Assembly (NCBI GenBank): GCA_004284765.1
Contig: NQJD01000013.1
Span: 1-32,000 of the forward strand
Length of the DNA stretch: 32,000 nt
Direction: 5' to 3'
Source of the DNA: Candidatus Electronema aureum
Lineage (GTDB): Bacteria > Desulfobacterota > Desulfobulbia > Desulfobulbales > Desulfobulbaceae
Shown here in pieces: positions 1,649-31,925 of this stretch; the first letter of the stretch is position 1; each line of letters opens with the position of its first letter. The notes under the pieces are model-generated. The model saw only the letters and a program-made list of their open reading frames with translations, had not been told where the DNA came from and did no database searches. The translations under genes were made by a program, and so were the position numbers.

Positions 1649-2188
1649 CGTCTTTCTAGCTAAAAATGATTCTACAGTTTCTGTACAACTCCAAAATACC
1701 CCTCTCCTCCACGTCTTGCAAGCAGTTTAGCGGGCAGCATCACTGGAGCATAGGCACGGCACAGACTGGCAGATATTCTGAAGGTGAGCGCGTAACCGGC
1801 TGAGACGCTGCCAAGGGTGTTGAATGCGCCCTTGCTTTTTTTCAGGTGCGAAGGATGACGGAATGCCTTATTATTCCGCTTGATCCGGGCGCGGTGCGCT
1901 TCGCTGCTCTTCTCAAGGATGACCGTGCCGATATTGTACTTTATGGAGAAGCGGTGGGAGAGGGGGCGGGGTAATATCTGAAGCCCAAGGCAGCGGCAAT
2001 TCTCCTCTGGATATCAGTTGAACCTCTCCCTGAATCCGTGTAACGTATCCGGCGATGTGATGAACCGCTCCAAATGGCCGTTGAACAGACCTGCGGAGCC
2101 GTTCAACGACTCTGAACAGGCGAAATGCGGGCCGTCGCCTCAACACATTTGACCCGCTGACTAACAAAGCACAACAAGGGAGAATCTG

Positions 2189-5100
2189 ATGCTCTCGAAG
2201 TTCTTTCTCGACCGGCCTGTATTCGCCTGGGTTATCTCCATCATCATCATGAGCGCAGGCGGGCTGGCGATCTACAAGATGCCGGTGTCGCAGTATCCGC
2301 CCATCGCGCCGCCTGCCATTTCCATTGATGCCTTCTTTCCGGGCGCATCGGCAGAGACGGTCGAGAACACCGTCACCCAGATCATCGAGCAGAAGATTAC
2401 CGGCTTGGATGACATGCTCTACATCTCTGGCACCAGTTCGTCCTCTGGCGGCTCGCGGGTGGAGCTGACCTTTGCGCCGGGTACTGATCCTGATCTGGCT
2501 TGGTCTAAGGTGCAGAACAAACTCCAGCTTGCCTTAGCCAGCCTACCTGATGTGGTGCAGCGTTCTGGCGTGCGGGTGAACAAATCGACCCGCAACTACT
2601 TGATCCTCGTTGGTCTGGTGTCGGAAGACGGCAGCATGGACAGCAACGATTTGCAGGACTATGCCCAGTCGAGTCTTGAGAAAGTTCTTTCCCGTGTGCC
2701 GGGTGTGGGTGAGGTTGAGCCGTTCGGCGCACAGTATTCGATGAAAATCTGGGTCAACCCGGACAAGCTGACCAGCTACAACCTGACGATGGAGGATGTG
2801 GCTGCCGCCTTGCGTACCTACAACGTTGAGGTCTCTGCTGGACAGCTCGGCGGCACACCTGCTTTGCCGGGCCAACGGCTGAACGCGCCCATCGTGGTGC
2901 AGCATCTGCTCCAGACCCCGGAGGAGTTCGCGCAGATACCTATCCGTATCAATGAAGACGGCTCAACCGTGCGGGTCAAAGACATAGGCCGCACTGAATT
3001 AGCCAGCGAGCGCAGCGACGCAATCACCAAGAGCAACGGCAAGCCCTCAGCAGTCATGGCTATCCGTCAGGCTGCCGGTGCCAACGCCCTGTCCACGGCG
3101 GATGCGGTCAAGGCGAAGCTGGAGGAGATGAGCAAGTTCTTTCCGCCCGGCATGAAGGTGATTTATCCTTACGACACCACGCCTTTTACCAAAGTGTCGA
3201 TTGATGAAGTGGTAAAGACCCTCTTTGAAGCGGTACTGTTGGTCTTCATCATCATGTACGTGTTCATGGGCAATATCCGCGCTACTATCATCCCGACCAT
3301 TGCCGTACCCGTAGTGCTGCTCGGCACCTTTGCTGTGCTGGGCTTTGCCGGGTATTCGGTCAACATGCTGACCATGTTTGCGATGGTGCTGGCTATCGGC
3401 CTGCTGGTTGATGATGCGATTGTCGTGGTGGAGAACGTCGAGCGCATCATGAGCGAGGAAGGGCTTTCGCCCAAGGCCGCGACAGCTAAATCCATGGACG
3501 AGATCACCAGTGCCCTGATCGGCATCGGTCTGGTGCTCTCCGCTGTGTTCGGGCCAATGGCCTTCTTTCCCGGCTCCACCGGTGTACTGTATCGTCAGTT
3601 CTCTGTCACCCTGATTGCGGCGATGCTGCTGTCTGTAGTTGTCGCCCTGATCCTCACCCCGGTGCTCTGCGCCTCCTTTCTGCGCCCAGTCAAGGCTGGG
3701 CATTCGCCCTCAGAAAGCGCGATCTTCTTCATGCGCCCTTTCTTCATCGTCTTCGAGTTCTGCTTCGGCTGGATTCGCGGCCTTTACGTGCGCTTTGTTG
3801 CCTTTTCTCTGCGCATCAAAGTCGTCTTCATCGTCTTCTACCTCCTGATCGTGCTGCTGGTGGGCTTCCTCTTCCAACGGATGCCTACGTCGTATATCCC
3901 TGATGAAGATCAGGGCATTCTGCTCGTGCAGGTCAGGCTGCCAGCAGGCTCCACCTTGGAGCAGACTGAGGCGGTTATCAACAAGGTACGCAGCCATTTC
4001 TTAGAAAACGAGAAAGAAGCAGTGGCGAATGTCATGACCGCAGTCGGGCGGAACTTCGGTGGCCAAGGCCAGAACTTGGCGATGAGCTTTGTCAAGCTGA
4101 AGGACTGGAAGCTCCGTCAGCGGCCTGATCTGAAGGTGAAGGCAGTCGCAGGCCGAGCAATGGCGGTGTTCTCCAAGATCAAGGAAGGACAGGTGATCTC
4201 CTTCCCGCCGCCACCGGTAATGGAGTTGGGTATGGCCACAGGCTTTGACTTTCAACTGCAAGACCGTGGTGGCTTGGGACATGAGATGCTGACAGCTTCC
4301 CGTAACCAGCTCCTCGGCATGGCGATGCAGGAACCGCGCCTGATGGCCGTACGGCCCAACGGCATGGATGACACGCCTGAATACCGGGTGGATGTTGATT
4401 GGGACAAGGCAGGTGCGCTCGGCGTACCGCTCGGCTCTATCCACAGCACCTTGGCTACCGCGTTCGGCAGCTCGTATGTCAATGACTTCATCCAAGCAGG
4501 CCGGGTAAAGAAGGTCTATGTCCAGGCCGACGCGCCCTATCGCAGGTTGCCGCAGGACTTAGAGCGGCTCTACGTGCGCAACAAAGAAGGCAAGATGGTG
4601 CCGTTCTCTGCCTTTGCCTCAGCCCGCTGGAGCCTCGGCTCACCTAAGTTGGAGCGCTTCAATGCCTTCCCCTCCATGAACATTCAGGGGCAGCCCGCGC
4701 CGGGCCACAGCACCGGCGAGGCAATGGCGATCATGGAGCAGCTCGTTTCCAAACTGCCGCAAGGCATCAGCTTCGACTGGAGCGGGCTGTCGTATCAGGA
4801 GCGGATGTCCACCAAGCAGGGGCCACTGCTCTACGCCTTCTCGATCTTCGTCATCTTCCTCTGCGTGGCCGCGCTGTACGAGAGCTGGACAATTCCTTTC
4901 GTCAACCTGCTGATGCTGCCGCTGGGGGTATTCGGCGCAATCGTTGCCACCTCAATGCGGGGGATGCCCAACGATGTCTATTTCCAGATCGGCTTCCTCA
5001 CCACAATGGGCCTTTCGACCAAGAACGCCATCCTGATCATCCAGTTCATCAAGGAGCGAATGGAGAAAGGGCAGGACTTAGTTGAGGCCACGCTGGATGC

Positions 5101-16112: not shown

Positions 16113-18878
16113 TCATGCCTTCTGAATTCTGGTTTTGATGTACTTCAGCGGCGGCGTGCCCGACCATTTACAGGCCAGATTCGGCGGCAACAAGACATTC
16201 GTGTTAAAGCCGCCACAGCCGGGAAACTTTGGATCGCCTTCTAGCCCATATCTGCCGCCGAAACCGCCTGCTGCCGCAATCACACCCTGCCGGATGTCCC
16301 ATGTGACCTTGGCTGCCGCTTTAATTTCACCCCAAGGCGAGGCGACGATCACTTGATCGCCGTCAGCGATGCCGAGCTTTTTTGCGTCCATCCAATTGAT
16401 CCAGACAGGATTGCTGCTACATTGGTTCATCAGGGCCGGATTCCAGCAGGTGGAAGTGTGTTCATGCTCCAGCACTCGGAAGTAGCCGAGAATCAACGGA
16501 TAGTCAGTATCAGGCCGCAGCTCTGGCCAATCCTCCCACGGCGGAAGATAATCAGGCAGGGCATTCAATCCGGCCTTTTCTGCAACCGGATTGATGAAAT
16601 TGTACTTGCTGGTCGCGCTGTGACCTGAAGCTCCGTAGCCGGACGGCGGGTTAATGGAACCCCACTGCTCATATTTGCGGAACGCCTGCGGATCAGTGAT
16701 AAAATAGCCGGTCTCGCGCAGTTCCTCCAGTGTCACCCGCTGATTGCGGAGCTGGTTGCGCATGTATTCCTCTTCGCTTTGCCACGGGAAGAACTCGCCA
16801 AAGCCTAGCCGCTGCGCCAGCTCGGTGAAAATCTGTACCACCGGCCTTGAATCATACAAGGGCTGCACCGCTTTCTCTCCGAGCGAGATGAAAGATTCAT
16901 ACATCCAGTCTGAGGCCACGCGGCTTTGCTCTAAATACGTGCAATCGGGCAACACCACGTCGCACAGCTCGGCAGTGTTACTCATGTAGCAGTCAATGGC
17001 GCAGGAAAACTCCAGCCGCTCCATCGCCCGCCGCAAACTCGGCTCCGCGCCGCTCGACATAACCGGATTACCGAAATAACAAAGCATCGCTTTCAGTCGC
17101 CCGGCCTGCGCATCTTCCTCAAAATAGGCGGGAATCCAGCCGCTCCAAAGCCTGCCGGGATTGAGCTTGAATTTTGCGGCGTTGTTCGGTGGCTTAGGCT
17201 GATTGTCCGCCCATGCTGAGGCCAGCTTGAATTTGCTGACCAAAGCCGGGCCGCCCGGCGCGTCAAAGCTGCCCATAAGGGCGTTTAGAGCTTGAATGGC
17301 TTGGGTGGCATGGGTGGCGTTCGGTGCCTGAGCCACACCGGTCCACGAAAGTGCGGCGGTGGCAGGCGCAGCTGAGGCGAATTCGTGGGCCAGCCGGGTT
17401 ATAGTTGCGGCAGGCACCCCGCAGATCGTCTCGGCCCATTGCGGCGTGCGGGCAATGCCATCCCCCTCTCCTAAAAGCCGTTTTTTGAACTCGGCGAACC
17501 CGTAGCACCAGTTTTCAGTGAACGCCTGGTCGTGCAGATTGTCCGCCACGATGACGTGGCACATCGCCATTGCCATCGCCCCGTCTGTGCCGGGAATGAT
17601 CGGAATCCACTCCGTCGCAATCTGCGCAGTCTCGCAGCGGCGCGGGTCAACCACCACTAACTTGGCCCCATTTTTCACCGCCTGCTTGAGCAAGTTGACT
17701 TTGCGCTGTCCGGCGGAAGTCGCCAGCTCATTGATGCCGAAGAGCAGAATGTACTGCGAATGGGCATAGTCAATCCAAGGCCGCTTTTCGCCAAGACAAT
17801 GCTCGTTCGCCATGCGGTTGGGATTGTCGCACATCTGGCGATGGGTGGTCTTGTTCGGCGTGCCGTAAGCGGCCATCACTGCGTCGTGGCACCAACTATT
17901 GTAGTCGTTGCCCTGATGAAAGCCAACCGTCTTCGGATCAAAGCTCTTCAGCTTGGCGGCAAGCAGATCAAGTGCCTCGTCCCATTCCGCTTTGCGGAAT
18001 CTGCCGTTCTCGCGAATCAGGGGAGTTTTGAGACGATAGGCGGAATAGGTGTTTTTATGCGCATTTGCCCCTTTGATGCAAAGCCGTCCGCCGCCTTTGG
18101 GATCACCAGCCAATCCCTTGCAGCCGACAATCACCCCGTCTTTCACCCGCACCTCCTGCCCGCAAAGACCAAGGCAGATATAGCAGTGCGTCTTGACGAC
18201 GTGTTCCGGCTCTATCTGCGCCGAGCCTTCAACCAGCGTGACTAAGGTCTTGTTTAACTCCAGCGCAGCAAGAATCGGTTCCAGCACTACCAGCGCACTG
18301 TCTGCTGCTGACAGCACAGCCATCGTCAGTTCAGCCAGCCCTTTATAGAAATCTGTTTTAGCCAAAGCAGCAAGCTGGGCACAAAACTTGTCCGCCCAAG
18401 ACAGCAAGTGATTCTGGAGAAAATCAGCCTGTCGTTCCTCGTTGCCGGGCTGTGCCGCCAAATAAGCCATGAATTCCAGTTCAACCGCAATATGATCGTC
18501 CAAATCCGGCCAAGCAGGATTGAGATGCACCCCGCTATCGTGATAAATTTTCCGTACCTGAAAGATTGGCTCCTGCATGACCAGCGGCTCGCCGGAAAGA
18601 TGGCAGGAAGCATAGGGAAAAGCAGGATTCTGACCTGCATTGAGAAACAGCTCTGCGTAGTCATGGCGCAGCTCGCGGAAAACTGCCTCTGTCGGGGCGG
18701 ACTGGAGAAAATCGATCATCCGGGGTAGGCCAGATGACCGCTTTTTGCTGAAAAAATGCTCAGTAACCTGACTATTTGCAAGTTTTCTCAGCAAGGGCAA
18801 AGAAATTTCATCCCGATACAACAGGGAAATAAAGCGGTAGATTGTTGATCGCGCTAACTTCATTTGAGTGCCCATCAT
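16113..18878 (-). CDS. Molybdopterin (Mo/W-bisPGD) oxidoreductase catalytic subunit fused N-terminally to a TorD/DmsD/NarJ-type chaperone domain; no Tat leader
   Basis: Residues ~10-190 carry DYAELFLNAGQNPAFPYASCHL, DDHIAVELEFMAYL and FYKGLAEL (TorD family). Then come C232-x2-C235-x3-C239...C267 (4Fe-4S), THRQMCDNP (candidate Cys ligand), VVVDPRR and IPIIPGTDGA, and a C-terminal GIADGDQVIVASPWGEIKAAAKVT barrel. It is a single 921-aa ORF. Confidence 0.9.
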   Translation of the reverse strand: MMGTQMKLARSTIYRFISLLYRDEISLPLLRKLANSQVTEHFFSKKRSSGLPRMIDFLQSAPTEAVFRELRHDYAELFLNAGQNPAFPYASCHLSGEPLVMQEPIFQVRKIYHDSGVHLNPAWPDLDDHIAVELEFMAYLAAQPGNEERQADFLQNHLLSWADKFCAQLAALAKTDFYKGLAELTMAVLSAADSALVVLEPILAALELNKTLVTLVEGSAQIEPEHVVKTHCYICLGLCGQEVRVKDGVIVGCKGLAGDPKGGGRLCIKGANAHKNTYSAYRLKTPLIRENGRFRKAEWDEALDLLAAKLKSFDPKTVGFHQGNDYNSWCHDAVMAAYGTPNKTTHRQMCDNPNRMANEHCLGEKRPWIDYAHSQYILLFGINELATSAGQRKVNLLKQAVKNGAKLVVVDPRRCETAQIATEWIPIIPGTDGAMAMAMCHVIVADNLHDQAFTENWCYGFAEFKKRLLGEGDGIARTPQWAETICGVPAATITRLAHEFASAAPATAALSWTGVAQAPNATHATQAIQALNALMGSFDAPGGPALVSKFKLASAWADNQPKPPNNAAKFKLNPGRLWSGWIPAYFEEDAQAGRLKAMLCYFGNPVMSSGAEPSLRRAMERLEFSCAIDCYMSNTAELCDVVLPDCTYLEQSRVASDWMYESFISLGEKAVQPLYDSRPVVQIFTELAQRLGFGEFFPWQSEEEYMRNQLRNQRVTLEELRETGYFITDPQAFRKYEQWGSINPPSGYGASGHSATSKYNFINPVAEKAGLNALPDYLPPWEDWPELRPDTDYPLILGYFRVLEHEHTSTCWNPALMNQCSSNPVWINWMDAKKLGIADGDQVIVASPWGEIKAAAKVTWDIRQGVIAAAGGFGGRYGLEGDPKFPGCGGFNTNVLLPPNLACKWSGTPPLKYIKTRIQKA

Positions 18879-18915: not shown

Positions 18916-19809
18916 TTACTCGCCAGCTTTCATGCCAATTGTACGTAAACACTCAAGCACTGGGGCATAATCAACAGCCTGTTTCCAACCGCTTATTTTT
19001 GCACCCTGCGCTGCTGAAGAATTTTCCTTCATGTCTATAAGGGCTGAGGAAACTTTTTTACTCACATCAGTCTTGACATGAGCAAGAGCAGCTAAGGGCC
19101 ATTCAGGATAAAGAACAGTTGAGTGAACAAAAGGGAAATCATCCTCAACTTTATTGATAATCCTGAAATCATCCATGTTGATTTTTCCATCTTCTGCCAT
19201 TCGCTCTAATGTATCGGTACGCACTGTCCCTACATCAACAAGCTTATCCGCAACAGCATGAACGACCTGCTCATGGGTGCCAATCTCTGCATATCCTAAG
19301 CAGTCTTTTTCCGGGTCGATGCCGTTGGTCTTCAGCAGATACAAGCCAGCATGAAGTCCACCAAATGAAGATTTCTTAACAAAACCAAATTTTTTCCCTT
19401 TGATATCCTCCAGCTTTTCAATCAGGCTATCTTTGCGGACAAAGATCACACCGCCAAACTGATGTACGCTTTTATTTTTGATTTTGTTGATCATGGTTGC
19501 TACAGCTTTCACGCCGTATTTTTCCCCCATTTCCGCGACAATGGCAGGATTAGCCAAGATGAAATCAATCTTTTTCTCTTTGATTGCTGCGTCCATAGCA
19601 AGAAAGGTTACAGGCATGACGGAGAACGAGATCCCTGTGGCTTTGCTAAGATATTCCCCGTGTCCATTCCATTGCGTGATGACCTCGCTGGCACCGTTTT
19701 TTGCCAGTACCCCGATTGTATACTCCTCCGCAGCTGCCTGAAAGGTCTGTAGCAGGACGAATGCCGCTAACATAGCGGTAGCTAATAATAATCTGTTTCT
19801 ACGAATCAT
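18916..19809 (-). CDS. PhnD-like periplasmic substrate-binding protein (phosphonate-bd fold)
   Basis: Signal peptide ...LLQTFQAAA, then YTIGVLA, IDFILANPA, GGVIFVRKDS, IKGKKFGFVKKSSFGG and GTVRTDTLERM. SD AGGAG. It ends 37 nt upstream of the oxidoreductase ORF on the same strand. Confidence 0.8.
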   Translation of the reverse strand: MIRRNRLLLATAMLAAFVLLQTFQAAAEEYTIGVLAKNGASEVITQWNGHGEYLSKATGISFSVMPVTFLAMDAAIKEKKIDFILANPAIVAEMGEKYGVKAVATMINKIKNKSVHQFGGVIFVRKDSLIEKLEDIKGKKFGFVKKSSFGGLHAGLYLLKTNGIDPEKDCLGYAEIGTHEQVVHAVADKLVDVGTVRTDTLERMAEDGKINMDDFRIINKVEDDFPFVHSTVLYPEWPLAALAHVKTDVSKKVSSALIDMKENSSAAQGAKISGWKQAVDYAPVLECLRTIGMKAGE

Positions 19810-20066: not shown

Positions 20067-21473
20067 ATGAAGAACAGCGGAACAGTACGTCTTTTAGCCT
20101 TTGTTGCAACTTTTGCCGCCGTAGTGAGCACGCAGGAATGCTTGGCTCAGGCGCAAAAACAGAACAAAGAAACCATCTTGCGCATTCATGGCTCTAACAC
20201 CATTGGCGCACAGCTTGCGCCGGATTTAGCTAAAGTCTTTTTGCAAAAGCTGGGCGCGGATTCAGTCAAACAGGTTGATCTCGCCGCAGGCACCGAGATT
20301 AACATCGAAGGGCATTTTCCCAATCAAGAGCTGGTTAAGGTCATCGAAATCCGGGCGCACGGCTCTTCTACCGGTTTCAAGGGACTGAAGGACAAGCAAT
20401 GCGACATTGGTATGGCCTCTCGGAAGATTAAAGACAATGAAGCGCAAGAGTTAGCTTTTCTCGGCGAGATGACGAGCAGTGCCAGCGAGCATGTTTTGGC
20501 CTTAGACGGTGTAGCGGTGATCGTCAATAGCGCGAATGCTGCTGTGTCCAAGCTGAGTTTCGCCCAATTGTCCGACATTTTTTCCGGCAAGCTGATAAAT
20601 TGGTCGAAAATTGGCTGGGCAGACGCGCCGATCAGCATTCAGGCGCGGGATGAGAACTCAGGTACGCACGACACATTTCAGAGCATCGTGTTGGGCGAGA
20701 AAAAAATGGACGGGGCGGCGAAACGCTGGGATTCCAACGACAATCTTTCTGCGGCGGTCAACGCTGATACCCACGCGATTGGCTATTGTGGCCTGCCTTA
20801 TGTCAAGCACAACAAAGCCTTGGGTATTTCCGATGGTGGCCCAGCAGTACGGCCCACGGTTTTTACCGTTGCTACTGAAGATTATCCGGTTAGCCGCCGC
20901 CTTTATTTTTACACCCCGGCTGCTCCAGAAAATTCGTACACGCAGGACTTCATCGCCTTTGCCTTGAGCCAAGAAGGACAGGAGCAGGTCAGAAAGCACA
21001 AATTTGTTGATTTGACCATTTCTGCTGAGGAACACAAGGTTGATGTCGCGTTGGGAACGAACCAAAATTACCAAGTGCTGTATAAATATCTGACTGCCGT
21101 GCGAGGTGCGAAACGACTGTCGGCAAACTTCCGCTTTAAAGGAGAAACGCTTGAATTAGACAACCGATCCTTGCGCGATGTTGAACGAATAGTGGATTTT
21201 CTGGCGGAAAATAGAGCAAAGGAAATTATTTTAGCAGGATTTTCCGACCGCAGTGAGGATATAGCCCGCAATATAGAAGGACCTACTGATAATAAATACG
21301 CCAAGAATTTTGATCTTTCCTGCAAACGGGCGGAAGCCGTTAAAGAAGAGCTGAATTCACGCGGTATCAAAATTGGCGATATCCTTTGTGTCGGCAGCGA
21401 GATGCCAGTCGCGTCGAATAGTACCGAACTGGGTCGGGAGAAAAACCGCCGGGTTGAGGTCTGGGTGAGATGA
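20067..21473 (+). CDS. PstS-like phosphate-binding domain fused to a C-terminal OmpA-like peptidoglycan-binding domain
   Basis: Signal peptide; GSNTIG, HGSSTGF, CDIGMASR, ALDGVAVIVN and LSDIFSGKLINW (PBP-like type 2). The C-terminal segment LAGFSD...SCKRAEAVKEEL...NRRVEVWV is OmpA-like. Confidence 0.85.
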   Translation: MKNSGTVRLLAFVATFAAVVSTQECLAQAQKQNKETILRIHGSNTIGAQLAPDLAKVFLQKLGADSVKQVDLAAGTEINIEGHFPNQELVKVIEIRAHGSSTGFKGLKDKQCDIGMASRKIKDNEAQELAFLGEMTSSASEHVLALDGVAVIVNSANAAVSKLSFAQLSDIFSGKLINWSKIGWADAPISIQARDENSGTHDTFQSIVLGEKKMDGAAKRWDSNDNLSAAVNADTHAIGYCGLPYVKHNKALGISDGGPAVRPTVFTVATEDYPVSRRLYFYTPAAPENSYTQDFIAFALSQEGQEQVRKHKFVDLTISAEEHKVDVALGTNQNYQVLYKYLTAVRGAKRLSANFRFKGETLELDNRSLRDVERIVDFLAENRAKEIILAGFSDRSEDIARNIEGPTDNKYAKNFDLSCKRAEAVKEELNSRGIKIGDILCVGSEMPVASNSTELGREKNRRVEVWVR

Positions 21474-21509
21474 CCGCATCAATTCCTCATGTTCTCACAA
21501 CAATCCTCT

Positions 21510-21519
21510 GACAATTGTC
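21510..21519. promoter_or_regulatory. Perfect 10-bp palindrome upstream of the Cys-rich operon (possible operator)
   Basis: GACAATTGTC lies 65 nt upstream of ATG 21584. There is no further support. Confidence 0.25.
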
Positions 21520-21583
21520 TGGTTGAATGAGGGCAGTCGAAGTGGAGAAGCAGCTGGCTGACATTTTCAAATGAGGAGGAGTC

Positions 21584-21787
21584 ATGCTGGAACGAAATGA
21601 GAGTACCTTGGAGCGGGCCTTGGAAAAAGCGGCAAAGATCATCTGTAGCTTGCAATACGGACGCTGTCCTGTCCAGGAAGAGCATTTTCCCGGCTGTCCC
21701 AGCGTGTGCAATGAGGACAGCCTGCCGTGGCAGTGCTGGGTTTCCTATCTGCGGGCCACCGCAACCGGGGCAGGGGCAGCGGCGTGA
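21584..21787 (+). CDS. Small Cys-rich protein (67 aa), unknown function
   Basis: Strong SD GAGGAGGAG lies 2-5 nt before the ATG. The composition is plausible: a helical N-terminus (ESTLERALEKAAKIICSL), then RCPVQEEHFPGCPSVCNEDSLPWQCW. The overlapping frame of ORF 21597.. looks like R/S/P/G-rich noise here. Confidence 0.55.
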   Translation: MLERNESTLERALEKAAKIICSLQYGRCPVQEEHFPGCPSVCNEDSLPWQCWVSYLRATATGAGAAA

Positions 21788-21815
21788 CGATGGACTGCAA
21801 TCTGCGGGTGCCAGC

Positions 21816-22145
21816 TTGGCGTGGAAGACGGAAAAGAACAAACTGAACTGCTGGGAGTTCAAAGAATGCGGCAGGGAGCCGGGCGGTCGCAACGCGGCAT
21901 TGTTCGGAATCTGTCCCGCCGCTGTTGTGCAGCAGGCGGACGGCATACATGACGGCAAAAACGGCGGACGCTGCTGCTGGTTCGTGACCGTTTCTTTCTC
22001 CAAAGGCAAACCTCAAGGAGGTTGCTCAGAAAACTCCGGCTGCTGCTGGAGCTGCAAATTCTACAATCTGGTCAGAAACGAAGAGCATACCGGTTTCATC
22101 CTCCGATATATCAGTCCAAGCCGGATACGGCCTGTTCAAAAATAA
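21816..22145 (+). CDS. Two-CW-type Cys-rich domain protein (~109 aa; start codon uncertain, TTG 21816 proposed)
   Basis: NCWEFKECGREPGG...GICPA...GKNGGRCCW...CCWSCKFYNLVRNEE matches my recollection of the family labelled two-CW domain. There is no in-frame ATG after the upstream gene's stop. A terminator follows. Confidence 0.65.
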   Translation: MAWKTEKNKLNCWEFKECGREPGGRNAALFGICPAAVVQQADGIHDGKNGGRCCWFVTVSFSKGKPQGGCSENSGCCWSCKFYNLVRNEEHTGFILRYISPSRIRPVQK

Positions 22146-22173
22146 CTGCCCGTCTTTCCTTTTGTCTCAACCG

Positions 22174-22204
22174 GCCAGCCAAAATTTCAGCTGGCTGCTT
22201 TTTT
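22174..22204 (+). terminator. Rho-independent terminator of the Cys-rich operon
   Basis: GCCAGC (22174-22179) pairs with GCTGGC (22190-22195) around a 10-nt loop, followed by tgcTTTTTT. Confidence 0.6.
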
Positions 22205-22435
22205 CTATTTTTCCGCATTCCTCATCAAATTTTCATTGCTGCTTAACACATTCCTAACACCTGCCGGTTAAATAATTGGTCAGGAGAGTTACGCCAGTTC
22301 CCTCTGCGGCAAGGCAACCAGTGCAAGCTCCGGCACTGTGTCGCGGTAGGGAGCTGCTCTTTTCACGACAGGCTGTGTTGATGGCATGTCGCTGCCGTCA
22401 TGTTGGATATGAATCAATTTTCTAAGGAGAGAGAG

Positions 22436-23590
22436 ATGAGAAAACTGTATTTTCAAGGTGCAATCACCTTGACTGCCGGAGCCATGCTGCTCGGCGCATC
22501 AACTCGAGCGTCTGCGCTGGAGATCAAATCCGGCAACGACAAAGTTGATGTACAGCTTAAAGGCCATATCGCCAGAGCAATGATGATGGCTGATGACGGC
22601 AATGACAGCAAATTTTTTCACGTTGATAACAGCAACTCGGAGAGCCGAATTATTCTTGATGGTAAGGTCAAAGCCTCTGATTCCCTCACTGTTGGTAGCA
22701 CTTTTGAGGTGCAATGGCAGGCAAATCCATCTGACAAAGTGTCAATGGGTGAAGAAACTATCTCCGGTGAATTCAAAGAACGAATCATGGAGGTTTATTT
22801 TGATGCCAAAGATATGGGCAAATTTTCCTTGGGACGCGGTGACATGGCTTCAGACGACAGCACCGAAGTTGATTTATCCGGTACTGATTTAGCAGGCAAT
22901 TCCGGTGTAGCTGACGTGGGCGGCAGTTTCAAATTTTACGATCCCGCAGCGGAAGCACTCGTTCCTGATGAAAACGGCGAAGTCGTCGATAACCGCTTGG
23001 CGGTGAGCAATGTCTTTGACAACATGGACGGTTTGAGCCGGAGAAACCGGGTGCGCTACGACACGCCCAAGTTTGCAGGTTTCGGTCTCGGTGTTTCCAC
23101 TGGTGAAAAGGAAATGGCTGATGTCACGCTGATTTATTCCGGCGAGTTGAGCGGCACTAAGTTAGAAGGTGCGCTGGCTTGGTCTGATCCGGGCAGTGAG
23201 AAAAGCTACAGTCAAATCAACGGCTCCGCCTCGCTGCTGTTCGATTTTGGCCTTAATTTTACCGCTGCGTTTGGTAGCCGCGATGTAGATAACATGCCTG
23301 CGGGCGGCGATGAGCCGACCTTCACGTATGGCAAAATTGGCTACAAATGTGACAAACTGCTGCCTTTTGGTTCTACCGCTGTTTCTGTGGATTACGGCGC
23401 GTACGAGAACGTCAAGCATCAGAATAAAGGCGAGGAAGGCACTGCCTACGGCCTTCAGCTGGTGCAAAAGGTGTCTGACTGGAACACCGAGCTGTATGCG
23501 GCATGGCGTAATTTTGAGTTAGAGGATAACAGCGGCGCAGGCTACGAGGATATTTCGATTGTTATGGCCGGGGTACGGCTCAAATTCTAA
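22436..23590 (+). CDS. Outer-membrane porin (beta-barrel), paralog 1
   Basis: SD TAAGGAGAGAGAG before ATG 22436. Signal peptide ...ASTRASA. Alternating beta-strand pattern and a C-terminal ...VRLKF with terminal Phe. Confidence 0.8.
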   Translation: MRKLYFQGAITLTAGAMLLGASTRASALEIKSGNDKVDVQLKGHIARAMMMADDGNDSKFFHVDNSNSESRIILDGKVKASDSLTVGSTFEVQWQANPSDKVSMGEETISGEFKERIMEVYFDAKDMGKFSLGRGDMASDDSTEVDLSGTDLAGNSGVADVGGSFKFYDPAAEALVPDENGEVVDNRLAVSNVFDNMDGLSRRNRVRYDTPKFAGFGLGVSTGEKEMADVTLIYSGELSGTKLEGALAWSDPGSEKSYSQINGSASLLFDFGLNFTAAFGSRDVDNMPAGGDEPTFTYGKIGYKCDKLLPFGSTAVSVDYGAYENVKHQNKGEEGTAYGLQLVQKVSDWNTELYAAWRNFELEDNSGAGYEDISIVMAGVRLKF

Positions 23591-23604
23591 GCAGGAAAAT
23601 CAGC

Positions 23605-23637
23605 GGCGGATGTCCCTATCTACCCGGGACATCCGCC
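23605..23637 (+). terminator. 12-bp-stem hairpin after porin 1
   Basis: GGCGGATGTCCC (23605-23616) pairs perfectly with GGGACATCCGCC (23626-23637). The downstream sequence is T-rich but has no clean run. Confidence 0.5.
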
Positions 23638-23762
23638 CTTCAATCGTTCTTGCTTCTTCTAACTCTCTCGGTTGATAATCTTTTTCTCTGGAAAAACAGA
23701 TTCTACCGAGGTATTATGATACAAAAGTTTTCACCGTCATAATTTTTCAGGAGAGAAGAACG

Positions 23763-24902
23763 ATGAAGAAACAAAAAATCACATTGGCTGCTGCGGCCTT
23801 ATTGCTTGCTACCGCCACCGGTGCTGCGGCTTTAGAGGTTAAAACCGGTAGTGATAAAGTGAATGTCGAGCTGTACGGTCAGATCAACCGGGCGATTATG
23901 AATGTTGATGATGGCAATGAAAGCAAGGTCTTTCATGTGGATAACATCAACTCTAGCACCAGAGTTGGTTTAAACGGAAAGATTGAAGCTGCCGATTATC
24001 TAACCGTGGGCAGCCAGTTCGAAGTAGAATGGATGGCCAATCCTTCTGATAAGGTGTCAATGGAGGAAGAGAGCATTACCGGTAAGTTTGAAGAGCGGTT
24101 GATGGACATTTATCTTAATTTTAAGAATATCGGTAAATTCTCTGTCGGCAAAGGGAAAATGTCCTCTGATGACACATCCGAGGTTGATTTATCCGGTACG
24201 TTAGTAATCTCCAATTCGGATGTGGCCGATGTGGGCGGCGGCATCAAGTTTTATGATTCAGCAGCTCCGGTTTCTGTTCCGCCTGCCGAGGGCGAGGAAG
24301 TCGTGGACAAGCGACTGGCAGTAATCGATGTATTCAACAACATTGACGGTTTGAGTCGGAAAAATCGGGTGCGTTACGATACGCCTTCTTTTGCTGGTTT
24401 CGGATTAACCGCAGCTGTGGGTGAAAAAGATGTTGCTGACATCGCCTTGACTTATTCCGGCGAATTGAATGGAACTAAGCTCAAAGCAGCTGTGGCGTAT
24501 TCTGATCCGAATAAAAATTACACGCAGATCAATGGTTCGGCCTCAGCCCTGTTTCCTTTTGGTTTCAGTTTAACCGCCGCCTCTGGTGTTCGCGACGTGG
24601 ACGATATGCCAGCTGGCAGTGATGATCCTGTTTTTACCTACGGTAAAGTCGGTTATCTCTGCAACGAGTTATTCCCGGTCGGTTCTTCAGCACTATCTGT
24701 TGATTATGGTGTGTACAAGAACATCAAACAGCAAAATCTCGGTCAAGAGGGAACAGCGATGGGTGTGCAGTTTGTTCAGCAGCTTGCTGACTGGAACTCC
24801 GAGCTATATGCGGCTTATCGCAATTTTGAGTTGGAAGATACTACCGAAGCAAACTACGAAAATATCAACATTGTAATGGGTGGCGCACGGTTTAAGTTCT
24901 AA
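23763..24902 (+). CDS. Outer-membrane porin, paralog 2
   Basis: Aligns with paralog 1 over its full length, at roughly 60% identity by eye. SD AGGAGAG. Signal peptide ...TGAAA. C-terminal ...ARFKF. Confidence 0.8.
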   Translation: MKKQKITLAAAALLLATATGAAALEVKTGSDKVNVELYGQINRAIMNVDDGNESKVFHVDNINSSTRVGLNGKIEAADYLTVGSQFEVEWMANPSDKVSMEEESITGKFEERLMDIYLNFKNIGKFSVGKGKMSSDDTSEVDLSGTLVISNSDVADVGGGIKFYDSAAPVSVPPAEGEEVVDKRLAVIDVFNNIDGLSRKNRVRYDTPSFAGFGLTAAVGEKDVADIALTYSGELNGTKLKAAVAYSDPNKNYTQINGSASALFPFGFSLTAASGVRDVDDMPAGSDDPVFTYGKVGYLCNELFPVGSSALSVDYGVYKNIKQQNLGQEGTAMGVQFVQQLADWNSELYAAYRNFELEDTTEANYENINIVMGGARFKF

Positions 24903-25003
24903 GCAGGTCGTTCCCTATTTTCCCACCTGTGCTGGAGATGCCGCTTGGTATCTTCAGCCGTTTTTCCTCGTTCGCCGCCCCCTTTTCTTTCCACACATCT
25001 CTA

Positions 25004-25705
25004 ATGGCAAAAGAAAAAATCCTGATAATTGAGGACGCGGAGGATATCCTTGAATTAGTCCGCTACAATTTAGCCAAAGAAGGCTATCAGGTGAGTTGCG
25101 CCATGTCCGGCGAAGAGGCCTTGAATGCGGTACGTCAGGCCACTTTTGATTTGATTTTGCTGGATATTATGCTACCAGGTTTAGACGGCTTGGAGGTCTG
25201 CCGACGGCTGCGGCGGAACATCGCCACAGCTCATGTCCCCATCATTATGCTCACTGCCAAAAGCGAAGAAACCGACATGGTGGTCGGCTTGGAGCTGGGC
25301 GCGGATGATTACATGACCAAGCCTTTTAGCCCGCGTGTGCTCACTGCCCGCATTCGGGCCGCGCTGCGCCGCTCGCAACAGGAAGGTCAGTTGGAAGAAA
25401 AAGCTGATATCTTCAGCTTCGGCGATTTGCAAATTGACTGCTCACGTCACGAAGTTTCGGTCAAAGGCGAGTTAGTGCGCCTAACCGCCACTGAGTTTGG
25501 CATTTTGCTTTGCCTAACCAAGCGACCTGGCTGGGTCTTTAGTCGTTATCAGATTGTTGAGGCGGTACGCGGCGAGGATTACAGCGTCACCGACCGAGCT
25601 GTGGATGTGCAAATTGTTGGCCTACGAAAAAAGCTCGGCGAGCTGGGTTGCTGCATTGAAACTGTGCGCGGGGTTGGCTATCGTTTTAATGCTCAAACCG
25701 GGTGA
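25004..25705 (+). CDS. OmpR/PhoB-family response regulator (receiver plus winged-helix)
   Basis: MAKEKILIIEDAEDI, LILLDIMLPGLDG, MLTAKSEE...GADDYMTKPF, and a C-terminal LTATEFGILL...VRGVGYRF. There is no histidine kinase gene in the window. Confidence 0.9.
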   Translation: MAKEKILIIEDAEDILELVRYNLAKEGYQVSCAMSGEEALNAVRQATFDLILLDIMLPGLDGLEVCRRLRRNIATAHVPIIMLTAKSEETDMVVGLELGADDYMTKPFSPRVLTARIRAALRRSQQEGQLEEKADIFSFGDLQIDCSRHEVSVKGELVRLTATEFGILLCLTKRPGWVFSRYQIVEAVRGEDYSVTDRAVDVQIVGLRKKLGELGCCIETVRGVGYRFNAQTG

Positions 25706-30482: not shown

Positions 30483-31925
30483 TCAGACAAAGTCGATGCT
30501 CACTGGGCAGTGGTCGGAGCCGTGGATATCATCGTGAATTTCGGCGGCCCGGACTCGGTTTCGGCTGCGTTCGTCCACGACGAAATAATCGATCCGCCAG
30601 CCCACATTGCGCTGCCGAGCAGCGGTGCGGTAGCTCCACCAGCTGTAGCGTTCCGGCTCGGCATGAAAGAGGCGGAAGGTATCGAGATAGCCTGCTTGGA
30701 CTAACTCATCCATCCAAGCTCGCTCCTCAGGAGAGAAGCCGGGACTCTGCACATTTGCTTTGGGATTGGCAAGATCGATTTCCTTGTGCGCTACATTCAA
30801 ATCGCCGCACAGCAGCACTGACTTTTCCACTGCCAACTGGTTCAAATGATCCAGCATCGCTCGGTTGAATGCCTGCTTAAAGGCCAAGCGTTTCAGGCCG
30901 TCTTGGGTATTAGGAAAATAGGCGGCGACTAAGTAAAAATCAGCAAATTCAAGGGTCAGCACCCGGCCTTCGCAGTCGAATTCTTCATGTCCCAAGCCGT
31001 AACGCACCCGCAACGGTTCTTTGCGGCTGAATACCGCCACTCCAGAGTAACCCTTTTTCTTAGCCGGATGCCACCAGACCTGATAGCCGGGGATGCTCCG
31101 GGCGGCTTCGGGCAATTGCTCTGGCAGGGCTTTGATCTCCTGCAAAGCAATGATGTCGGCGTTCAGCTTACTCATGCTATCAAGAAAGCCTTTGTCCATC
31201 ACCGCCCGCAACCCGTTGACATTCCAAGATACCAAGCGCAGGACTGGGCATGGAAACTGCTCCTTGCCTGCCGTCTTGCGCGGCTGTACACCGAGCTGCG
31301 GACAATAGGCAGCAATCACGCAGCGGTTGCAGTGCGGAGCGCGAGGTTTACAAGTGCCTTGGCCGAACGCCACCAGCAAAGAGTTAATGCGGAGCCAGTG
31401 CTGCTGCGGCAGTTTGGCCCGCAGAGCGGTCTCGGTCTCTGCGGGACTGCGGGTCTGCACATAGCCCCAGATGTTCATGATCCGATGTACGTGGGTGTCA
31501 ACGCAGATAGCAGGCTTGCTGAACGCCACCGCCATGACTAAGTTGGCGGTTTTACGACCTACGCCCGGTAGCCGGAGCAGTTCCTCGATGGTCTCTGGCA
31601 CCTGCCCAGCAAAGTCACGGCGGAGAACTTCAGGCAATGCGGCAAGGTAGCGGGCTTTACTGCGAAAGAAGCCCACGGGATAGATCAGCTTTTCCAATTC
31701 CGCAACTGAAAGTCGGGCAAGAGCCTCAGCGTTTTCTGCCTGAGCAAAGAGCCGCCGAGCTGCCCCCGCCGTGACTTCGTCTTTAGTGCGAGCGGAAAGA
31801 ATGGTTGCGGTCAAGACTTTGAAGGGGTCGTTCGTCTGGGCGGCAATCAAGTCAACCACCGGCACTTGGTATCCAGCAATCTCCTTGTTTAGCAGGGCAA
31901 CAACAGTATCGATGGGAAAAGTCAT
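30483..31925 (-). CDS. Fusion protein: endonuclease III (Nth, HhH-GPD plus 4Fe-4S) and exodeoxyribonuclease III (Xth/EEP AP endonuclease)
   Basis: The N-terminal half has LPGVGRKTANLV, VDTHVHR and CKPRAPHCNRCVIAAYC (C-x6-C-x2-C-x5-C). The C-terminal half has LRLVSWNVNGLRA, ALQEIK, GDLNVAH, WRIDY and SDHCPV. It is one 480-aa ORF. Confidence 0.9.
   Translation of the reverse strand: MTFPIDTVVALLNKEIAGYQVPVVDLIAAQTNDPFKVLTATILSARTKDEVTAGAARRLFAQAENAEALARLSVAELEKLIYPVGFFRSKARYLAALPEVLRRDFAGQVPETIEELLRLPGVGRKTANLVMAVAFSKPAICVDTHVHRIMNIWGYVQTRSPAETETALRAKLPQQHWLRINSLLVAFGQGTCKPRAPHCNRCVIAAYCPQLGVQPRKTAGKEQFPCPVLRLVSWNVNGLRAVMDKGFLDSMSKLNADIIALQEIKALPEQLPEAARSIPGYQVWWHPAKKKGYSGVAVFSRKEPLRVRYGLGHEEFDCEGRVLTLEFADFYLVAAYFPNTQDGLKRLAFKQAFNRAMLDHLNQLAVEKSVLLCGDLNVAHKEIDLANPKANVQSPGFSPEERAWMDELVQAGYLDTFRLFHAEPERYSWWSYRTAARQRNVGWRIDYFVVDERSRNRVRAAEIHDDIHGSDHCPVSIDFV

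Follow-up and report, generated by a model that had tools for sequence, protein, structure and literature searches.

ORF67 and a stand-alone two-CW protein, encoded side by side in Candidatus Electronema aureum, as possible Cys-rich accessory proteins of phosphate signaling

We analyzed two adjacent genes for small Cys-rich proteins at positions 21,584 to 22,204 of a 32,000-nucleotide stretch of DNA from Candidatus Electronema aureum (contig NQJD01000013.1, positions 1 to 32,000 of the forward strand; hereafter the window). The first gene, ORF67, encodes 67 amino acids (aa), and the second encodes a 109-aa protein that consists of a stand-alone two-CW domain. Both are real genes under purifying selection. 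The explanation that we favor, tentatively and at somewhat short of an even chance, is that their products are accessory sensors, cytoplasmic and Cys-rich, that belong to a phosphate-signaling (Pho) locus, with ORF67 modulating PhoR/Pst and the two-CW protein wired in.

ORF67 runs from ATG 21584 to TGA 21787, has a strong Shine–Dalgarno site (GAGGAGGAG, 21573-21581), and encodes five Cys (C21, C28, C38, C42, and C51), as an initial annotation made from the sequence alone had described; the spacing that it gave as CP-x9-CP-x2-C is CP-x8-CP-x2-C. The GGAGG-type site before the gene is conserved in all aligned relatives. A profile search returned more than 100 homologs of 48-117 aa, mostly 61-75 aa, and the ratio of nonsynonymous to synonymous change (dN/dS) in the ORF67 frame was 0.06-0.11 against relatives, which disposes of the reservation that ORF67 might lack homologs and the overlapping frame be the favored one. 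The homologs come from Electronema, Electrothrix, Desulfolithobacter, Desulfobulbus sp. N3, Thiovibrio, and further Thermodesulfobacteriota. The family is known so far only from Desulfobulbales-type genomes, is unannotated, and is described in no database; it had no credible match in Pfam, NCBIfam, PADLOC, PHROGs, or a PDB sequence search. We rejected the UniRef label DUF3795 that one homolog (P0287) carries, as 47 family members including P0287 gave no Pfam match to it at E up to 1, and a DUF1127 match was likewise absent among 47 members at this threshold.

The family core reads ALEKAAKxIC-x6-CP-x8-C-x3-C-x5-PWxCW and contains four invariant Cys and one nearly invariant Cys. In the AlphaFold2 (AF2) model of ORF67 (pLDDT 73.5), a helix at residues 2-23 is followed by a Cys-rich loop and a second helix at residues 48-62, and alignment and model together place the four invariant Cys within the loop that joins the two helices. 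A Foldseek search of the PDB with this model gave no fold match. Neither ORF67 nor the two-CW protein has a signal or leader peptide. The suggestion that the two might be distantly related is not borne out: hhalign returned a probability of 0.5%, and we rejected distant homology.

The genomic position of ORF67 points to phosphate signaling. A Pho-type gene neighbors ORF67 at 23 of 62 distinct loci, compared with 0 of 77 control loci, the controls being loci that contain a two-CW gene only. These neighbors include PhoR/PnpS-like kinases, pstS-ompA (a PstS-family phosphate-binding domain with an OmpA-like C terminus), pstC/pstA, and phoU. At about 12 loci, the PhoR/PnpS-like kinase gene ends inside the ORF67 homolog or within a few nucleotides (nt) of its start; at locus L143, for example, the kinase gene (2161-4011) overlaps the homolog (3989-4183). 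The overlapping kinase accompanies one ORF67 clade and has a Cache-HAMP-PAS kinase architecture. Its best NCBIfam matches are PnpS (394.6 bits, cut-off 400) and PhoR (309 bits, cut-off 334), and it is 46% identical over its full length to the kinase of an Electrothrix aestuarii locus in which pstC and phoU on the minus strand are followed on the plus strand by ORF67, an OmpR-type regulator, and that kinase. ORF67 lies between phoU and a response regulator–histidine kinase pair (L155), adjoins phoU (L155, L098, and L126), or is found two genes downstream of it (L010). Electrothrix bin13 (L015) carries pstC-long, ORF67, two-CW, and pstA-long in this order, and in the window and several Electronema relatives ORF67 is 3′ of pstS-ompA, which precedes it by 38-142 nt in five distinct cable-bacterial loci. 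We conclude that ORF67 is associated with pst/pho genes, but partially, as three other types of context occur. In the clade with the overlapping PhoR-like kinase (L121-L148), moreover, the order DbpA helicase, kinase, ORF67, and an 800-aa protein is conserved in seven to eight loci (e.g., L148 4332-6740); the 800-aa protein has no Pfam or NCBIfam match.

In the window itself, the gene order is pstS-ompA, ORF67, two-CW, porin, porin, PhoB-like regulator. The features of this region are as follows:

20067..21473, + strand: pstS-ompA, a gene with a PstS-family phosphate-binding domain and an OmpA-like C terminus (Pfam PBP_like_2 and OmpA)
21475..21535, + strand: conserved noncoding stretch upstream of ORF67, CGCATCAATTCCTCAT ... 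ATTGTCTGGTTGAAT (kept in L011 and L006, partly in L010)
21573..21581, + strand: Shine–Dalgarno site of ORF67, GAGGAGGAG (read directly from the sequence)
21584..21787, + strand: ORF67, 67 aa, Cys-rich, predicted cytoplasmic (ATG to TGA; more than 100 homologs)
21597..21815, + strand: accidental upstream extension of the two-CW frame (182-aa ORF), noncoding (stops in relatives)
21816..22145, + strand: stand-alone two-CW protein, 109 aa, TTG start (NF045718; ends in TAA)
22172..22212, + strand: intrinsic-terminator-like hairpin and T-run (RNA fold; conserved in L011)
22400-23590 and 23763-24902, + strand: two Porin_4 outer-membrane porin genes (Pfam Porin_4)
25004..25705, + strand: OmpR-family response regulator, best match PhoB (NCBIfam)

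The pstS-ompA product scores 189 bits against an NCBIfam PstS-family subfamily model, under its cut-off of 206.6. The top NCBIfam matches of the response regulator (25004..25705) are two PhoB models at 241 bits, with their cut-offs of 270 and 296 unmet, and the protein shares 56% identity with the regulator encoded ahead of the PhoR-like kinase gene of the E. aestuarii Pho locus. A porin gene is also found 3′ of ORF67 in L011 and L012.

The two genes have the sequence-level hallmarks of a bicistronic unit: they are on the same strand with a short gap and no internal terminator, and their order is kept in relatives. The initial annotation called this unit terminator-bounded, which holds for the 3′ side; on the 5′ side no terminator was found. 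At the 3′ end, the two-CW frame is followed, as claimed, by a hairpin (22172-22197) with an 8-bp stem (6 G-C) and a 10-nt loop, and then CTTTTTTCTATTTTT; it folds at −13 kcal/mol (z = −2.1). Its G+C-rich stem passes directly into the T-run, as in an intrinsic terminator, with a loop longer than usual, and a loop above 8 nt is the reason why a consensus terminator scan missed the hairpin. L011 has kept both the stem and the T-run, which there lie directly 3′ of ORF67. In the 110-nt gap between the pstS-ompA stop (21473) and ORF67, our scan found no terminator and no sigma-70-like promoter, and a consensus scan for sigma-70 and sigma-54 sites upstream of ORF67 gave no match. A sigma-54-like spacing that we spotted there by eye was discarded because it is not conserved in L010 or L011. 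Thus, pstS-ompA is probably cotranscribed with ORF67, and because no terminator or promoter-like site separates them, the transcription unit may consist of three genes, pstS-ompA, ORF67, and two-CW. Rfam and tRNA scans of the window gave no matches.

L011 and L006 conserve the noncoding stretch at 21475..21535, and L010, in which the upstream gene is a different one, retains part of it. The palindrome reported 65 nt upstream of ORF67 exists at the claimed position (a perfect 10-bp palindrome, GACAATTGTC, at 21510-21519), but perfect 10-bp palindromes occur in the window at chance level (22 observed, about 31 expected), and in relatives the site reads GACGATTGCC and AATAATTGTC, neither palindromic. 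We therefore rejected it as an operator. A scan for E. coli-type Pho boxes gave weak matches only. Of note, an element CGCAT(CAA)TTCCTCAT(C) at 21475-21490 has a similar copy at 22213-22226, after the terminator and upstream of the first porin gene, and L011 preserves both of them. The element could serve as an operator common to the two sites; we regard the CGCAT..TTCCTCAT signal as weak because the short motif turns up within coding regions at other places of the window as well.

The two-CW frame is as the initial annotation described it, with about 109 aa, nine Cys, and three CW dipeptides from TTG 21816 to TAA 22145, following the ORF67 stop after 28 nt. TTG 21816, named there as the best candidate start, is the sole ATG, GTG, or TTG in frame after the ORF67 stop and is the start used by gene callers (P0001). 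The statement that the frame has no ATG is correct downstream of the ORF67 stop; upstream, the frame is open as far as ATG 21597. This opening in the window genome permits a single 182-aa protein translated from ATG 21597, with ORF67 a spurious overlapping frame, a reading to which we give practically no credence. ORF67 has more than 100 homologs and a dN/dS of about 0.1, whereas in most relatives the shifted frame contains one or two stop codons and has a proportion of nonsynonymous differences (pN) at least equal to that of synonymous ones (pS). Moreover, the Shine–Dalgarno site is spaced for ATG 21584 and not for 21597, and members of the two-CW family are mostly 100-115 aa with the domain N-terminal, starting here at N11 of the 109-aa form. 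On the strength of these stops and of the pN and pS values, we take the extension to be accidental; the comparative data already refute the 182-aa ORF.

The absence of an ATG is also not an assembly error, because the independent assembly of Candidatus Electronema nielsenii F5 (contig 19, L013), a freshwater cable bacterium about 97% identical to the window, is identical across the ORF67/two-CW junction. The initial annotation had allowed that homologs in a differently assembled sequence might begin at an upstream ATG; F5 is no different, and two-CW orthologs start with an ATG at the place equivalent to TTG 21816. In E. halotolerans (L016) this ATG has an AGGAGG site and lies 30 nt past the upstream stop, and in L010 and L015 the ATG overlaps the stop or lies 17 nt after it. 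The window has a 30-nt deletion in the junction region. Two-CW is probably translated by coupling from a weak TTG start.

The identification of the second protein as a two-CW domain was correct. It matches NF045718 at 93.8 bits (cut-off 35), with residues 10-89 covering model positions 1-80 of 80. The family core, N-C-W-x4-C-G-R-E-P-G-G ... G-x-C-P-A-A ... G-G-R-x-C-W ... G-T-x-C ... C-x2-C-x-F-Y, has seven conserved Cys (C12, C18, C33, C54, GTxC, and CxxC), of which the window copy has six. It retains the two Cys-Trp dipeptides that are invariant in our 54-sequence alignment A1 (NCW 11-13 and GGRCCW 50-55) and also carries CGRE, GxCPA, and CxxCxFY. The GTxC cysteine is absent in L014/P0002 as well, and the window copy has an extra Cys seven residues downstream. 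Membership in NF045718 holds despite this loss. The N-terminal core evolves at a dN/dS of 0.10-0.23, while the mid-region (residues ∼56-76) is variable within the cable-bacterial clade.

What two-CW does is suggested by where else the domain occurs. A profile search of 1.84 billion representative proteins at a threshold of E up to 1e-3 returned 1,758 clusters. The 245 members collected include 154 that are no longer than 130 aa, and almost none has a hydrophobic, transmembrane-like stretch. In 49 long members, the fusion partners are HATPase_c (13), HisKA (8), REC (8), PAS (8), cNMP-binding (4), Pkinase (3), GGDEF (2), MCP (2), and PP2C (2) domains; the two-CW domain is usually N-terminal (37 domains, with 20 C-terminal and 4 in the middle). 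Recurrent fusion to diverse output and transmitter domains is what is expected of an input domain, and because the long members are joined to kinase, GGDEF, MCP, PP2C, and receiver domains, two-CW behaves, as far as its architectures indicate, as a sensor or signaling input domain. The neighbors of stand-alone two-CW genes at 80 genome loci include PAS-histidine kinases (17), PP2C phosphatases (8), and CBS proteins (5). Judged by the titles of their records, the hosts at these loci are mostly Nitrospirota, Desulfobacterota, methanogens, and other groups that are generally regarded as anaerobic or microaerophilic. Some members, among P0003-P0007 and P0098-P0101, carry tandem two-CW domains in single proteins of 190-265 aa, and P0100 (820 aa) combines two copies with cNMP-binding, Ser/Thr kinase, and PP2C domains.

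The AF2 model of the two-CW protein has a confident core (pLDDT ∼90). We found no PDB sequence match and, with Foldseek, no PDB fold match and nothing significant in BFVD. Literature searches on the domain name, its motifs, and NF045718 returned nothing relevant, in agreement with the initial description of the domain as uncharacterized, and a search on Cys-rich proteins of cable bacteria or Electronema also found nothing. The proposal that the pair is a metal- or redox-sensing module draws indirect support from these data for the two-CW protein, through its fusions and its signaling-gene neighbors, with the cofactor itself putative. Alternatively, both proteins could be structural Zn adaptors, scaffolds or nucleic-acid binders whose Cys serve folding only, without sensing. 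Structural Zn binding is the commonest role of small Cys4-type sites, and the four invariant Cys of ORF67 in its inter-helix loop would suit such a site. We consider this unlikely: the fusion partners of two-CW are typical of input domains and not of DNA-binding adaptors, and the mostly anaerobic or microaerophilic host groups would fit an oxygen-sensitive cofactor, although neither point is decisive.

The association between the two genes is narrower than the families themselves. The initial annotation asked whether they co-occur elsewhere, and we found that they rarely do: among 62 distinct ORF67 loci, they are adjacent only in the window and F5, in L010/L015/L093, and in E. halotolerans (L016), that is, in three cable-bacterial lineages. 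The three have diverged so deeply that dS approaches or reaches saturation, and their flanks differ. In a neighbor-joining tree of 90 two-CW domains, the paired copies and L014 form a five-leaf clade, and we therefore regard the linked two-CW genes as orthologs of a single group whose divergence went together with that of ORF67. In L011, synteny with the window extends over both flanks, and the shared terminator is kept together with an 18-nt remnant of the two-CW 3′ end, from which we conclude that two-CW was deleted there. In L094, whose ORF67 is 91% identical, unrelated DNA occupies the slot downstream of ORF67. Judged by these comparisons, the pairing is old (synonymous sites saturated) yet dispensable, and the slot is variable.

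Other genes have been found in or near these positions. In Electronema sp. TJ (L006 2313-3250), toxin–antitoxin-like DUF7387 and UPF0175 + DUF3368 genes follow ORF67 in the two-CW slot; in L014, a HigB/HigA-like pair (4228-4855) lies directly upstream of the closest two-CW ortholog. A conserved protein of 360-385 aa that has a weak DUF4469 match but no confident family assignment is encoded beside two-CW in L014 (5760-6839, plus strand) and in L016 (5344-6501, minus strand), in opposite orientations.

The alternative that competes most directly with a shared role in phosphate signaling is therefore incidental adjacency, in which a variable slot 3′ of ORF67 gains and loses small accessory genes and two-CW is functionally unconnected with both ORF67 and phosphate signaling. 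We take this to be a serious possibility, if a somewhat doubtful one. It accounts for the restriction of the pair to three lineages among the 62 loci, for the toxin–antitoxin-like genes in the same slot of Electronema sp. TJ, for the unrelated DNA in L094 and the clean deletion in L011, and for the nearest two-CW ortholog standing alone after a HigBA-like pair in L014; it also agrees with the count of Pho neighbors at two-CW-only loci (0 of 77) and with our finding that no small Cys-rich partner recurs beside two-CW genes in other phyla. It is opposed by the persistence of the pair: three lineages diverged to near or complete synonymous saturation have kept the gene order with a gap of 28-30 nt or an overlap, they have done so in three different genomic contexts, and their two-CW genes form one orthologous clade.

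Several of our own observations weigh against a joint role in Pho signaling. The pair is missing from most ORF67 loci, L011 has lost its two-CW gene by deletion, and the closest two-CW ortholog (L014, 72% identical) has no ORF67. In the available DNA, 39 of the 62 ORF67 loci show no Pho gene, many of these contigs being short, and the control set for the enrichment comes from other phyla and is hence imperfect. Thiovibrio, Desulfolithobacter, and related genomes place ORF67 by nadE-like, MCP, and hybrid-kinase genes, and in four loci it is beside thiS-thiG. The kinase and the regulator fall just under the NCBIfam equivalog cut-offs for PhoR/PnpS and PhoB. Finally, the two-CW protein of the window has Ser in place of the nearly invariant GTxC cysteine, which is present in at least 90% of members.

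The initial annotation also raised a precursor-like peptide pair, which as a ribosomally synthesized and post-translationally modified peptide (RiPP) system would be modified and exported. The small size and Cys content of both proteins and the variable mid-region of two-CW are compatible with this, but we judge it highly improbable. As the annotation itself remarked, no maturase or transporter is beside the pair, the neighbors being pstS-ompA, the porins, and the response regulator; we likewise found no radical-SAM enzyme, cyclase, protease or peptidase, or (ABC) exporter adjoining it in the window. Leader peptides are absent, both conserved cores are under purifying selection (dN/dS ∼0.1), neither protein has a PADLOC or PHROGs match, and two-CW serves as an N- or C-terminal module of large cytoplasmic signaling proteins.

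Our data show that both genes are real and constrained, to which families they belong, which domains two-CW is fused to, what neighbors the two genes have, and how the pair evolved. Returning to the favored reading, in which both are accessory sensors in a Pho locus, we infer the cofactor, the binding partners, and the joint action of ORF67 and two-CW along the following lines. Two unrelated soluble Cys-rich proteins would be produced from one transcript, with its 3′ end at 22172-22212 and its start probably upstream of pstS-ompA. The two-CW protein, as a single-domain copy of a widespread signaling input domain, would hold a metal or Fe-S center and report redox or metal status to a partner. 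ORF67, predicted to be a helical hairpin with a four-Cys loop, would be a small accessory modulator of the PhoR/Pst signaling complex, a role suggested because its gene overlaps that of a PhoR-like kinase and lies in pst/pho loci. A cable-bacterial subclade has linked the two, and by this route a Cys-based signal could enter Pho control. Such an input is plausible because cable bacteria have a polyphosphate metabolism that tracks redox zonation (PMC9159916).

A more specific version, in which ORF67 and two-CW together form a Cys/Fe-S redox switch that docks on a PhoR-type kinase or the Pst complex, is in our view quite unlikely. If it were true, the redox state of the individual cell would gate both phosphate uptake and polyphosphate turnover in cable bacteria, and there would be a molecular handle on the observed relation of polyphosphate to redox zonation (PMC9159916); two-CW would then count as a new sensor domain for Fe-S or metal with a wide distribution, and ORF67 would represent a new class of small proteins that modulate PhoR. 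Apart from this, two-CW is a named domain for which we found no dedicated study and whose clusters, about 1,758 in number, span bacteria and methanogenic archaea; its behavior as an input module yields a concrete hypothesis, that of a metal or Fe-S sensor. The repeated placement of the ORF67 family at PhoR-like kinase, pst, and phoU genes suggests a new small-protein regulator of phosphate signaling in sulfur-cycling Desulfobulbales, the group to which the cable bacteria belong. Both proteins should be easy to express because they are short and soluble.

Other genes of the window gave observations of their own. On the minus strand, 16113-18878 encodes a 921-aa protein in which a TorD/NarJ-type chaperone domain (residues ∼3-190) is fused to a PhsA/DMSO-reductase-family molybdopterin catalytic subunit, two functions that are normally found on separate proteins. 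Directly adjoining it is a gene for a PhnD-like periplasmic binding protein (18916-19809, minus strand), whose best NCBIfam match is the sensor part of the TtrS tetrathionate kinase (137 bits). In a 480-aa protein (30483-31925, minus strand), a glycosylase domain of the HhH-GPD (endonuclease III) type is joined to an Exo_endo_phos nuclease domain of the ExoIII type. A 12-bp hairpin with a T-run (24931-24958) follows the second porin gene and falls within the listed response-regulator ORF (GTG 24929); the real start of the regulator is probably ATG 25004 because the part homologous to the E. aestuarii regulator starts with M26. Compared with F5 (L013 6779-6899), about 1.4 kb of the window (23591-25002) is unaligned, corresponding to the second porin gene and spacer, possibly because the strains differ or because a tandem porin was collapsed in the draft assembly.

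Among known systems, the NF045718 family is the one to which the two-CW protein belongs, matching the full 80-position model. The window subclade is divergent within it, with doubled Cys (RCCW and GCCW), a variable middle, and a conserved FILRYISPS tail, and the window copy differs further in its TTG start, its missing GTxC Cys, and the linkage to ORF67 in three lineages. The Cys clusters of WhiB-like proteins, FNR, and the NreB N terminus confer redox, O2, or NO sensitivity on regulators and kinases. Such Fe-S modules are our working model for two-CW, by analogy with its fusions and its anaerobic-type hosts; the Cys spacing of two-CW differs, it has no sequence or fold match to solved structures, and an Fe-S center is putative. 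PhoU (PF01895), whose fold is a metal-binding helical bundle, is a nonenzymatic accessory regulator that links PstSCAB to PhoR and is encoded in pst/pho loci, in some of which ORF67 is its neighbor; the putative accessory role of ORF67 would be comparable in its logic. PhoU differs in size and architecture, with ∼220-240 aa in these loci compared with the 61-70-aa two-helix Cys-loop form of ORF67, and we detected no homology between them. Small DUF1127 proteins (the A. tumefaciens SDPs and E. coli YjiS), which are cytoplasmic and in many cases shorter than 50 aa, bind PhoR and modulate Pho signaling by protein–protein contact with the kinase (PMC12501420). ORF67 has no sequence relation to them, is Cys-rich, and has so far been found only in Desulfobulbales-type genomes, but the part that they play, that of small cytoplasmic PhoR modulators, is by analogy the one that we would assign to ORF67.

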